A stretch of DNA of 64,000 nt from an uncultured Prevotella sp. (lineage in GTDB: Bacteria; Bacteroidota; Bacteroidia; Bacteroidales; Bacteroidaceae). Where the stretch lies: positions 17 through 64,016 of the forward strand of contig CALEKA010000064.1 in the NCBI GenBank assembly GCA_937898715.1, in the 5' to 3' direction. Below are positions 41,363 to 42,239 of the stretch, piece by piece. Both the position numbers and the translations under genes were made by a program. A model generated the notes under the pieces. The model saw only the letters and a list, made by a program, of their open reading frames with translations. It was not told where the DNA came from and ran no database searches. The stretch's first letter is position 1. Each line of letters begins with the position of its first letter.

Positions 41363-41394
41363 CAAAAGTAGAAAATGATTCTGAGAGATGCAAA
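41363..41394 (-). promoter_or_regulatory. Consensus sigma-A promoter for the TonB_C gene; -33 box supplied by the repeat element end
   Basis: Minus strand TTTG-N20-TACTTTTG. Confidence 0.75.
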
Positions 41395-42239
41395 AAGAGT
41401 GAACAATTTGTACACTTTTTCTTCGGTAGCATGTGTAAGTTGGGGATGGTGAAGGGTAAGGGGATTTGGCGGGGAGAATGTGCGGTTCTGACCGGTATTC
41501 TCAACTGCTCTCTCGCGCGCGTGCGTTACAGACGATTTTTGTTAGGAAATGCCCTTATCTTGTACTTTCTGCTTGTAAACACATGAGAATGAGTGGTTTG
41601 TGTGAGTGAGGGTACGCGATTTATTCCTCACTTTGCTTGCACTTGCTGTCACTCGGTCGTTTCCCATGGGAAGCTGAGGTCTTGATCGTGGGAAGCGGAG
41701 GAATTAGTCGTGGGCGGAGAAAAAATTAGTCGTGGGAAGCGGAGAAATTAGTCGTGGGTGGAGAAAAAATTAGTCGTGGGAAGCGTCAGAACTAATCGTG
41801 GGAAGTGGAAAAATTGTTTGCGGGGAGAGTATTGTTGAAATTGAGTGGGAGCATGAAGACGGATGATGGGGCGCTCGCGTGGTCTTGAAGTAGCGTATTG
41901 CGGAGAGGATGGGGGGGGAGAAAAAGGGGAGGGTATGGGGAGCGCCTTCTGTTTATACTTGGCAAGAATGTGTGTGCGTCAGTGAGGAAAAAGTGTAGGC
42001 AAAAAGGTGCGCTTTCATTGTGCATCTGCTTGATAATCAATGCGAAATGCTATTCGGAGTGAGGGGCGCAGGATATTTGGACTGAAAATTGACTGAAGCG
42101 TGCGCGCGTATACGCGTGAGAGGAAGCGGTGGGAGGGGAGGGTAGGTGCGTGGAAGTGGGGAGGTGGCGAACGGGGTTGGCGGGGAGCATGGTGAGGGGG
42201 TGAATGCAGAAAAAGTGTACAAATTGTTCACTCTTTTTG
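41391..42239. repeat. Symmetric non-coding element, copy 3 (complete, both terminal palindromes)
   Basis: CAAAAAGAGTGAACAATTTGTACACTTTTTCT and its exact reverse complement ending at 42239. 22-bp array 41664-41815, (RY)n tracts, GTGTAGGCAAA and TTGATAATCAA. Confidence 0.85.

Follow-up and report, generated by a model that had tools for sequence, protein, structure and literature searches.

Outward-facing promoter-like cassettes with a putative operator at the ends of a lineage-specific Prevotella repeat, probably derived from a VapE control region

The window, that is, the whole 64-kb stretch of Prevotella DNA analysed here, contains six copies of the palindrome GTGWACA-N3-TGTWCAC, against 0.03 expected from shuffled sequences. 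They lie at the outer ends of four elements, two of which are double-ended, with an intact dyad at each end, while the other two retain one at the left end only. The original prediction placed an octamer resembling the −7 box of Bacteroidota promoters at each of these ends, and all six were confirmed at their coordinates and on their strands, each 20 bp outward of the terminal TTTG of TCTTTTTG; on reading the window sequence, the six 20-bp spacers likewise proved mutually unrelated. The predicted neighbours were also confirmed. The left cassette of element 2 reads in sense toward a TonB_C gene (40807-41220, minus strand). Four further genes are faced from the 3' side: the GH95 gene (824-3277, minus strand) by the right cassette of element 1, the TPR protein gene (25601-27253, plus strand) by the left cassette of element 3, the Exo_endo_phos nuclease gene (42449-43837, minus strand) by the right cassette of element 2, and the RNase III gene (52474-54966, plus strand) by the left cassette of element 4. 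The ortholog of the left promoter of element 1 in the sister species points at the 3' end of a convergent gene. A search of the whole window against Rfam at the gathering threshold returned nothing beyond two tRNAs and one SAM-II riboswitch, and the E-value mode applied to element 2 gave a single chance-level snoRNA row (E 0.97). The features are listed below, with alternating purine-pyrimidine runs abbreviated as RY tracts.

157-812: element 1, double-ended (dyad-promoter cassette at each end), with 30-nt terminal inverted repeats at 185-214 and 755-784, 93% complementary
157-164, minus strand: element 1 left −7 box CAACTTTG of the predicted outward promoter
185-209, minus strand: element 1 left −33 TCTTTTTG (minus-strand reading, 185-192) and dyad GTGAACAAACTGTACAC (193-209)
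222-236: element 1 left-arm RY tract (Z-prone)
488-546: element 1 central 22-bp tandem array (TRF)
695-707: element 1 right-arm RY tract, with CTGTAA just before it at 690-695
760-812, plus strand: element 1 right cassette, comprising dyad 760-776, TCTTTTTG 777-784, a 20-nt spacer and −7 box TACCTTCG 805-812
27467-28005: element 3, intact dyad at the left end only, right boundary uncertain (about 28130); the right arm retains its RY tract (27981-28005) and has no dyad
27467-27519, minus strand: element 3 left cassette, comprising −7 box GAACTTTG 27467-27474, TCTTTTTG (minus strand) 27495-27502 and dyad 27503-27519
27544-27566: element 3 left-arm RY tract, 23 nt
27722-27797: element 3 22-bp tandem array, 3.5 copies
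41363-42267: element 2, double-ended, with 32-nt terminal inverted repeats at 41391-41422 and 42208-42239, 100% complementary
41363-41415, minus strand: element 2 left cassette, comprising −7 box TACTTTTG 41363-41370, TCTTTTTG (minus strand) 41391-41398 and dyad 41399-41415
41514-41526: element 2 left-arm RY tract, followed by TTACAG at 41526-41531
41686-41815: element 2 22-bp tandem array, 5.9 copies with a 44-bp super-period
42098-42118: element 2 right-arm RY tract
42215-42267, plus strand: element 2 right cassette, comprising dyad 42215-42231, TCTTTTTG 42232-42239 and −7 box CACCTTTG 42260-42267
55240-55791: element 4, intact dyad at the left end only; the right arm retains its RY tract (55767-55791) and a decayed half-dyad near 55856-55870
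55240-55292, minus strand: element 4 left cassette, comprising −7 box GACATTTG 55240-55247, TCTTTTTG (minus strand) 55268-55275 and dyad 55276-55292
55310-55334: element 4 left-arm RY tract, 25 nt
55468-55588: element 4 22-bp tandem array, 5.5 copies

The 2.95-Mb assembly contains 53 such palindromes, 52 of which occupy the same oriented frame, running from GCAGAAAAA through the 17-bp dyad and TCTTTTTG (−33) to a spacer of 20 or 21 nt and the box nAnnTTTGCA (−7); the lone exception, at C16:17093, is a palindrome devoid of A/T flanks. All 52 oriented copies match at least five of the six fixed positions of TAnnTTTG, and 31 match perfectly; of the 52, 44 have a 20-nt spacer and eight a 21-nt one. 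Against a background of all 28,294 genomic TTTG, 1.7% of which reach five of six and 0.48% the perfect box, the octamer enrichment at +20 that had been predicted for genome-wide copies is present. Among the 48 ends that could be classified against genes taken from a simple ORF caller rather than a trained gene finder, 25 face in sense and 23 in antisense. Perfect boxes occur at 17 of the 25 sense and 13 of the 23 antisense ends, and the earlier observation that only the gene-facing box is perfect was a small-sample effect; where the first −7 base is imperfect, the substituted C or G is itself conserved between species. Family members without an intact dyad also exist (e.g. C49:16950-17600 and the right ends of elements 3 and 4), so the cassette is not obligatory for persistence, and many copies carry one intact end only. 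The motif is confined to a few species of the genus.

The cassette boxes, judged by sequence, are a fit to the genome's own promoter consensus, including the CA extension. TAnnTTTG occurs 579 times in 1,741 gene-upstream regions, followed by C in 72% and by CA in 47% of cases, and CA comes next in 43 of 51 −7 boxes of the dyad set. Ordinary gene-upstream boxes are separated from a −33 TTTG by 19 nt (57), 20 nt (39) or 21 nt (4), hence mostly by 19 or 20 nt. We infer that the cassette constitutes a genuine-looking promoter of the Bacteroidota primary-sigma type pointing out of the element. The suggestion of a portable regulated promoter or antisense module holds insofar as the dyad adjoins genuine-looking −33 and −7 boxes and the cassette moves with the repeat; its transcription and regulation are predicted activities.

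Of the 52 copies, 19 have complementary bases at the two W positions of the dyad, where chance would give 50%. As these positions do not covary, the dyad fits a site for a dimeric protein and does not fit a hairpin, with conservation acting on sequence rather than on pairing. The absence of hairpin-type covariation between half-sites agrees with the proposal of an operator abutting −33, to which a protein would bind. The half-site may resemble the origin repeat of phage P4, a likeness on which no argument here depends. A bidirectional intrinsic terminator or cruciform between convergent genes, with an unrelated −7 box, would account for the A5 and T5 runs that flank the palindrome and for the many copies at 3' ends of convergent genes, and a 34-nt RNA can be folded with a mean MFE of −9.0 kcal/mol when A/U pairs are counted. 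We nevertheless hold this explanation to be decidedly improbable, since an intrinsic terminator keeps its stem by compensatory changes ahead of a U-tract, whereas the W positions reveal no selection for pairing in a stem of only 7 AT-rich bp with a 3-nt loop. Constancy among the 52 paralogues and 37 orthologues is a matter of sequence rather than structure, and the placement of a −7 box exactly 20 or 21 nt away in every one of the 52 copies would be left unexplained.

Comparison with the sister species G007 located 37 of 39 examined sites at orthologous positions, flanked by proteins ~90-99% identical. Among the 37 orthologous pairs, identity reaches 1.0 in the dyad arms, 0.84 and 0.86 at the W positions and 0.92-0.97 in TCTTTTTG, values that are partly due to ascertainment because the G007 sites were chosen by a pattern containing dyad and TCTTTTTG. 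No such bias affects the −7 box or the spacer: identity is 0.95-0.97 at the fixed −7 positions and 0.78 and 0.84 at the two free ones, compared with 0.70-0.78 in the 20-nt spacer and 0.57-0.73 in the interior. None of the 19 antisense-facing or the 16 sense-facing pairs has lost the −7 box in either species. Across the antisense set, its 114 fixed positions show no difference, whereas 9 of the 38 free positions do. This pattern of substitutions shows that purifying selection acts precisely on the dyad, −33 and −7, irrespective of how the neighbouring gene is oriented, and the inter-ortholog conservation, which excludes the spacer, agrees with the proposed regulated-promoter module.

In G001, synteny does not hold next to the EEP-nuclease orthologue. 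A search of sequencing runs for this sequence yielded no RNA run and four DNA metagenome runs, all from one study, with a 0.14 share of words. Contigs of those runs covering window positions 26500-46400 derive from a ~90-95% similar organism and are broken at or near the elements; the few contig joints have 21-22-nt sides at the palindromes.

Behind the cassettes, the interior of the element looks origin-like in its composition, with inverted arms, each bearing a Z-prone tract and GTGYARGC boxes, around a central 22-bp array. RY runs of at least 12 nt occur in 38 of 51 elements compared with 4% of background windows, and GTGYARGC boxes in 46 of 51 compared with 6.6%. Upstream of 43 of the 52 ends, an array with a 21-, 22- or 44-bp period is found at a distance of no more than 900 nt, in most cases 170-320 nt from the dyad; the array units vary in sequence among copies and have only a GGGRTAAT-like core in common. 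The transition/transversion ratio is 2.65 in RY tracts and 1.01 in flanks, a difference that may be inflated up to about two-fold because the tracts were defined in one genome alone; more weight is accordingly placed on the RY run of at least 12 nt being kept by 24 of 25 orthologous partners.

A single operator at a fixed position in ~50 promoters, with housekeeping genes such as frr, serC-like and FKBP genes among the sense-facing targets, might suggest that these are ordinary chromosomal promoters of one global transcription factor's regulon and that no repeat element is involved. This explanation appears improbable in view of the near-random orientation to genes (25 sense, 23 antisense), the common repeated architecture of the 200-500 nt upstream (RY tract, boxes, 22-bp array), the double-ended copies between convergent genes and the restriction of the motif to few species of the genus.

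The sole VapE-like gene of the genome (C65:4006-5388; VapE-like_dom, E 2.2e-23) lies behind the dyad at C65:3583, and genes for HU-HIG (+Amidase_2) proteins lie behind the dyads at C22:5491 and C61:690, with the cassette at normal promoter distance from the vapE and HU-HIG start codons. A dyad-promoter also stands upstream of vapE in G012 and G021, and in G162, VapE-like ORFs follow the cassette at 15 of 20 fetched sites (34 sites in all). In this last genome, ~480 nt of upstream sequence, the spacer, the −7 box and the 5' UTR all fall within a ~90%-conserved repeat unit, and near-identical copies are found there only. Taken at the level of gene order and sequence, the cassette appears to be the native promoter of the VapE-family helicase/initiator gene and of the HU-HIG genes. 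The 0.6-0.9 kb elements, in turn, look like the control region of a VapE-family gene multiplied ~50-fold in the lineage; in the present genome, a VapE-like gene adjoins one of the 52 ends, and the other copies have no such gene. The derivation could also run in reverse, an element copy having been captured as the vapE promoter.

SaPI Rep, represented by the chain "Similar to D. nodosus vapE" in PDB 7PDS, is described as a helicase that loads itself and recognises iterons through its C-terminal winged helix (PMC9371898). The structure model of the VapE-like protein has a mean pLDDT of 51, with the last ~80 residues alone predicted confidently. This C-terminus is modelled with a winged-helix topology and middling matches (Z 5-6.7), among which repressor, origin-binding and Z-alpha domains are tied, so that no specific relative can be named. 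VapE relatives with 35-40% identity come from small unannotated virome records and Bacteroidales plasmid-labelled records. One VapE record from a phage/plasmid collection is a longer, 704-aa form, and the dyad is absent from the stretch of it that was examined.

The G162 unit also bears on the proposal that the element inserts specifically at promoters, in which a promoterless element would have come to lie beside pre-existing ones. The unrelated 20-nt spacers among copies of the genome are what such a process would leave, yet inter-ortholog spacers diverge at the rate of the unconstrained interior, which explains their unrelatedness without target promoters. The repeat unit of G162 itself includes spacer, −7 box and 5' UTR, and 23 of the 48 classifiable ends face a gene 3' end, where no pre-existing promoter is expected. 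The proposal was consequently rejected, and we consider it highly improbable.

Both double-ended window copies possess terminal inverted repeats, as expected of a MITE. The end motifs (dyad, T-tract and nAnnTTTGCA) might accordingly be terminal inverted repeats serving a spreading machinery, whether transposase, recombinase or initiator, with an incidental or secondary likeness to promoters. This possibility, which we judge distinctly unlikely, draws on the length of these repeats (30-32 nt, fully complementary in element 2), on the clear multiplication of the family at some time and on the IS5-type ends of P. gingivalis MITEs, which also finish in CCTTTGCA (PMC4596501). In the BrickBuilt MITE, however, CCTTTGCA reads inward, opposite to the present ends. 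Transposase or recombinase genes are absent from every copy examined, the VapE-like gene being the one gene that accompanies copies regularly. The sequence immediately beyond the −7 boxes of elements 1 and 2 shows no evident direct repeat or target-site duplication, with some uncertainty as to where the elements truly end. The movement expected of a MITE is not apparent either: 37 of 39 sister-species sites occupy the same positions, which indicates no recent movement, and the motifs there are still under selection. Moreover, ordinary gene promoters of the genome have the same geometry and CA extension, and the cassette precedes the vapE and HU-HIG starts at normal promoter distance.

We consider it probable that each of the six sites is an outer end of a lineage-specific non-coding repeat, present in the window in four copies (two double-ended, two single-ended), with operator-guarded outward promoters and derived from a VapE control region. 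A housekeeping-type Bacteroidota promoter would fire outward from each intact element end, and a dimeric DNA-binding protein, possibly the winged-helix C-terminus of the VapE-like protein or HU-HIG, would occupy the operator directly against −33 and gate the promoter as either repressor or activator. The cassette would be part of the element and not of the insertion site; it is predicted to send sense transcripts into some neighbours, and others would receive antisense or convergent ones. With about half of the promoters directed at gene 3' ends, any advantage for the adjacent genes is not obvious. An unlikely alternative is that the elements are domesticated origin-like modules whose outward promoters act on the element itself and not on neighbours. 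Divergent transcription would then pump negative supercoils into the interior (twin-domain effect), the conserved purine-pyrimidine tracts would flip to Z-DNA, the phased 22-bp arrays would open for the VapE-like helicase or HU-HIG, and the dyad-binding protein would act as the switch. Such self-acting modules would explain the equal selection on 3'-end-facing and gene-facing promoters, and the ~50 fixed sites would represent supercoil-sensing or secondary-initiation/nucleoid-organising sites.

Promoter-bearing dispersed repeats are known, and evidence for selection on their promoters is rare. Here, one operator-promoter cassette remains intact at ~50 sites in two species while the surrounding DNA drifts, and it is equally tight toward convergent 3' ends, as exemplified in the window by RNase III and the GH95 fucosidase. 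The repeat may therefore have installed a co-regulated antisense or read-in layer, or the promoters may serve the element itself. For a clade with few genetic tools, the cassette could also provide a compact natural promoter and operator part.

No earlier description of this element was found in the literature searched. Its resemblance to iteron-type origins whose initiator promoter is autoregulated, as in iteron plasmids, and to the SaPI ori-Rep system (PMC9371898) lies in a tandem array of ~22-bp units, each about two helical turns long, and inverted repeats adjoining a helicase/initiator gene (VapE-like, SF3), in an initiator with a C-terminal winged helix (modelled here) and in a dyad overlapping the initiator promoter. 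The present elements differ in occurring as ~50 copies at fixed chromosomal sites, without the initiator gene and often with an outward promoter at both ends, and here a replication function and initiator binding are only putative. The ori of phage P4 presumably also belongs among the iteron-type origins akin to the element. Correia elements (CREE) of Neisseria and Bacteroides IS elements with outward promoters are likewise dispersed repeats that bring promoters, and sometimes protein sites, to arbitrary genes; the former measure 100-155 bp and form promoters partly with target sequence, and the latter encode a transposase. To our knowledge, both lack a fusion of operator and −33 box, have no minisatellite core and show no association with a helicase gene.

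The closest relative is BrickBuilt, a MITE of Porphyromonas gingivalis with outward promoter activity and possible antisense output, assayed in E. coli (Klein et al. 2015, PMC4596501). A sequence relation was not found when one leader and one array were compared: the leader oligo lacks the dyad, GTGYARGC and TGATWATCA, and the 23-nt unit contains none of the element motifs searched for. The BrickBuilt ends are of IS5 type (GAGACCTTTGCA) with the TTTGCA motif reading inward, whereas it reads outward in the present element; its leader and tail are distinct, whereas the arms here are inverted copies of each other; and an operator, Z-prone tracts and a VapE link are not described for it. The two are alike in organization. 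Both repeats belong to Bacteroidales, are strictly intergenic and non-coding, reach up to ~1 kb, occur in tens of copies per genome and enclose a central minisatellite (23-nt units in BrickBuilt, 22-nt here) between arms with small inverted ends. Both also have a narrow host range, positions in common with a sister species and a promoter directed out of the element, assayed in BrickBuilt and predicted from sequence here. The control region of a VapE-type helicase gene would offer a concrete source for BrickBuilt-like minisatellite repeats of the Bacteroidales.

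The original prediction placed a -7-like octamer 20 bp outward of each of six palindrome ends in the window, and sequence reading confirmed the coordinates and strands of all six, with exactly 20 bp in every case between the octamer and the TTTG that closes the palindrome-side flank TCTTTTTG. The 17-bp palindrome GTGWACA-N3-TGTWCAC, here termed the dyad, has six occurrences in the window, where shuffling predicts 0.03. Scanning the assembly (2.95 Mb, 121 contigs, 48% G+C) recovered 53 dyads, 52 of them in a common oriented frame comprising GCAGAAAAA, the dyad, TCTTTTTG, a spacer of 20 nt (44 cassettes) or 21 nt (8) and nAnnTTTGCA; the sole exception, on contig C16 (C16:17093), is without the A/T flanks. 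Of the six fixed positions of TAnnTTTG, every one of the 52 cassettes matches five or more and 31 are perfect, whereas among 28,294 genomic TTTG at the same spacings the corresponding proportions are 1.7% and 0.48%. The octamer is thus enriched at this distance across genome-wide palindromes, as had been anticipated, and the observation extends from six window sites to the whole genome. Ordinary promoters were represented by 579 TAnnTTTG boxes in 1,741 gene-upstream regions away from any dyad, in which the next bases are C in 72% and CA in 47% and the -33 TTTG lies mostly 19 or 20 nt upstream. CA follows 43/51 boxes of the dyad set, and the cassette -7 boxes look, by their sequence, like real promoters of this organism.

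Complementary bases stand at the two W positions in only 19/52 dyads against 50% expected from base frequencies, which argues against the dyad being a hairpin; the 34-nt dyad RNA folds weakly (mean -9.0 kcal/mol). The conserved feature is instead the sequence of each half-site, the signature of a dimeric protein, and the dyad is read as a predicted site for a DNA-binding dimer. Its asymmetric centre favours one orientation with respect to the promoter, with GTT in 28 copies and AAC in 5. The extended dyad takes in A- and T-tracts, and its sides differ solely in the position of one G (TCTTTTTG outward, TTTTTCTG inward), so that TTTG is present on the outward side only.

All four window copies of the repeat carrying these cassettes (elements 1-4) consist of two inverted arms flanking a central array. 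Runs of at least 12 nt of alternating purine and pyrimidine (RY runs) are found no farther than 200 nt from the dyad in 38/51 copies, compared with 4% of random windows; they reach 25 nt, consist of CG, TG and CA steps, are Z-DNA-prone and persist at this length in 24/25 orthologous partners. GTGYARGC boxes occur in 46/51 copies (6.6% of background windows), TGATWATCA in 23/51 and CTGTAAYGYG, in one orientation only, in 19/51. A tandem array of period 21, 22 or 44 bp lies at most 900 nt upstream of 43/52 ends, and its unit sequence varies among copies and between orthologues while keeping a GGGRTAAT-like core. In some family members the dyad has disappeared from one end or from both, as at the right ends of elements 3 and 4 and in C49:16950-17600. 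A long conserved ORF was absent from every copy read, and an Rfam search of the window and element 2 found nothing for the element.

The genome carries other repeats as well. Period-22 arrays are strikingly common genome-wide (184 by TRF, against 15 at period 20, 62 at 21, 35 at 23 and 29 at 24) and occur in the window at 11246-11398, 34064-34153 and 50309-50420; after merging, the arrays with periods of 21-23 or 44 number 255, only 42 of which have a dyad no more than 700 bp away, and the genome has several other recurrent unit types, some at contig ends. A second MITE-like family, with ends like AAGTTTCGGATTTAG, a GGGCTGAAAGCCC hairpin and an internal 22-bp array built from another type of unit, has copies at C100:9700-10100, C5:13100-13450, the start of C64 just left of the window and several contig ends. 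Intergenic 27-29 bp tandem repeats of CTAGG-type units lie at window positions 3329-3470 and 5801-5921, and upstream of an HU-HIG dyad (C61:690) a similar array stands in place of the usual interior. REP-like GC hairpins with a GACGCG-loop-CGCGTC core (428 cores in the genome; window 27400-27430 and 55180-55205) cluster by the elements, at most 300 nt downstream of 7/52 promoters and, in many single-ended copies, also just past the far end; they could act as stops for outward transcripts.

In the window, one promoter approaches a TonB_C gene in sense, four face the 3' ends of GH95, TPR, Exo_endo_phos nuclease and RNase III genes, as originally noted, and the sixth reads off the contig end; the orthologue of this last one in the sister species (G007) is directed at a convergent gene's 3' end, and REP-like hairpins lie between the two. 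The RNase III ORF so targeted (52474-54966) is unusually long (830 aa), with catalytic and dsRBD domains within the first ~270 aa; its extension includes 21-bp tandem repeats (54047-54121, 54245-54363). Elsewhere in the window, two tRNA genes and a SAM-II riboswitch (58 bits) at 34349-34693 lie upstream of an ORF at 34877-36175. Genome-wide, with gene orientation taken from a simple longest-ORF call and not a trained gene finder, 25 of the 52 ends are sense to the next gene, 23 face a gene 3' end and 4 are unclassifiable. The sense-facing genes are mixed (ribosome recycling factor, SerC-like aminotransferase, FKBP isomerases, transporters, two HU-HIG, VapE-like). Perfect -7 boxes occur at 17/25 sense and 13/23 antisense ends, and the earlier claim that only a gene-facing box is perfect is therefore a small-sample effect.

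Flanking proteins in G007 are ~90-99% identical, and 37 of the 39 G007 sites examined occupy orthologous positions; the elements are thus long-standing and fixed, and have not moved recently in this lineage. The 37 pairs were aligned with the dyad as anchor.

Identity by region in 37 orthologous pairs between this genome and G007
Dyad arms: 1.0
Dyad W positions: 0.84 and 0.86
Dyad centre: 0.65-0.89
TCTTTTTG flank: 0.92-0.97
20-nt spacer: 0.70-0.78
-7 fixed positions: 0.95-0.97
-7 free positions: 0.78 and 0.84
C after the -7 box: 0.92
Element interior: 0.57-0.73

Conservation of the dyad and TCTTTTTG is partly ascertainment, since both were in the G007 search pattern; the -7 box and spacer values are free of it. 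Both species keep the -7 box in 19/19 antisense-facing and 16/16 sense-facing pairs, which argues that selection holds the promoter motifs regardless of the downstream neighbour. Among antisense pairs, the fixed -7 positions are identical at 114/114, the free positions differ at 9/38 and the spacers are 72% identical; the 'imperfect' first -7 base (C or G) is likewise conserved.

The exact motif is limited to a few species. A 25-nt pattern was present in 4 of 41 relatives (45 in this genome, 39 in G007, one each in two others) and in 0/16 genomes from other families of the order. Across 148 genomes of the genus, the 17-nt dyad numbered 53 here, 42 in G007, 34 in G162, 4 in G021, 3 in G012 and 2 in G112, with a single copy in thirteen and zero in the remainder. 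A one-genome-per-species collection yielded 43 stretches, 38 in one Alloprevotella sp. record set and five singles elsewhere.

This genome has a single VapE-like gene (VapE-like_dom, E 2.2e-23; DUF3874, E 5.5e-11), immediately behind a complete element (C65:3583), with a copy of the second MITE-like family inserted between promoter and gene (C65:3640-3890). Two HU-HIG genes, one followed by an amidase gene, stand behind dyads without interior. In G012 the dyad-promoter precedes the vapE start codon by ~35 nt, with a 22-23-bp array of GTGCAAGAGAT-type units farther upstream, and in G021 a dyad precedes a vapE fragment. The vapE genes of G001, a genome without the GTGWACA dyad, have a different one: at locus L072 (~1000-1110) the inverted repeat GTGTCAA ... 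TTGACAC precedes the promoter TTTG-N21-TACCTTTG, which suggests that the operator differs between lineages. In G162 (34 dyads), an ORF beginning VapE-like follows the promoter at 15/20 sites fetched; most are truncated and four have at least 358 aa. Among its loci L009-L030 these ORFs are mostly pseudogenes, one beside an ISL3-type transposase fragment, and in one case a ~2.2-kb unit is flanked by ~120-nt direct repeats (73-89% identical). Eighteen aligned G162 copies are ~90% conserved across ~480 nt upstream, spacer, -7 box and 5' UTR; the promoter thus belongs to the repeated unit, and the suggestion that the element inserts at pre-existing promoters is rejected.

The VapE-like protein weakly matches PDB 7PDS, 'Similar to D. 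nodosus vapE' (E 0.005). Its model from a seven-sequence input is poor overall (mean pLDDT 51), but its last ~80 residues are confident and have a winged-helix topology; structure matches are middling (Z 5-6.7), the P4 origin-binding domain (Z 5.6) being tied with many other winged helices. VapE-type proteins include the SaPI Rep helicase-initiators. According to PMC9371898, the winged helix at the C-terminus of Rep reads iterons in the origin of the island.

The analysis shows a fixed cassette of predicted operator and promoter at the ends of an origin-like repeat, with selection on the putative operator, -33 and -7. Primary-sigma RNA polymerase would start a few nt beyond the -7 box and read outward, while a dimeric protein on the dyad, touching the -33, would gate the promoter; depending on the neighbour, the outcome would be added sense transcription or convergent/antisense transcription. 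By textbook analogy with initiator-gene promoters of iteron replicons, which are autorepressed, gating would be by autorepression; activation is a possible alternative. Antisense-facing promoters are retained no less strictly than sense-facing ones, so the function under selection may be one for the element itself; on the boldest reading, divergent transcription would supercoil its interior, with the Z-prone tracts and phased arrays. The original interpretation is partly supported: the operator-promoter cassette inside a repeat stands, whereas promoter-targeted insertion and perfection confined to gene-facing boxes do not.

No earlier description of the element was found in the literature searched. 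The nearest described system is BrickBuilt of P. gingivalis (PMC4596501), an intergenic repeat with a 23-nt minisatellite between two arms, present in tens of copies, common to P. gingivalis and P. gulae and with promoter activity directed out of the element. No sequence relation to the present element was found in the available text of that paper, which describes no operator, Z-prone tract or helicase link for BrickBuilt; its IS5-type ends carry the TTTGCA motif inward, whereas here it points outward. The IS5-type terminal repeats in several IS and MITE families of P. gingivalis (GAGACCTTTGCA and relatives; PMC4596501, Table 2) also contain a Bacteroidota -7-like box reading inward, which could bear on the expression of those elements. 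The present element is placed among minisatellite-bearing intergenic repeats with outward predicted promoters, to which our analysis adds a conserved predicted operator fused to the -33, evidence of selection independent of the neighbouring gene, and a probable derivation from the region controlling a VapE-type helicase gene.
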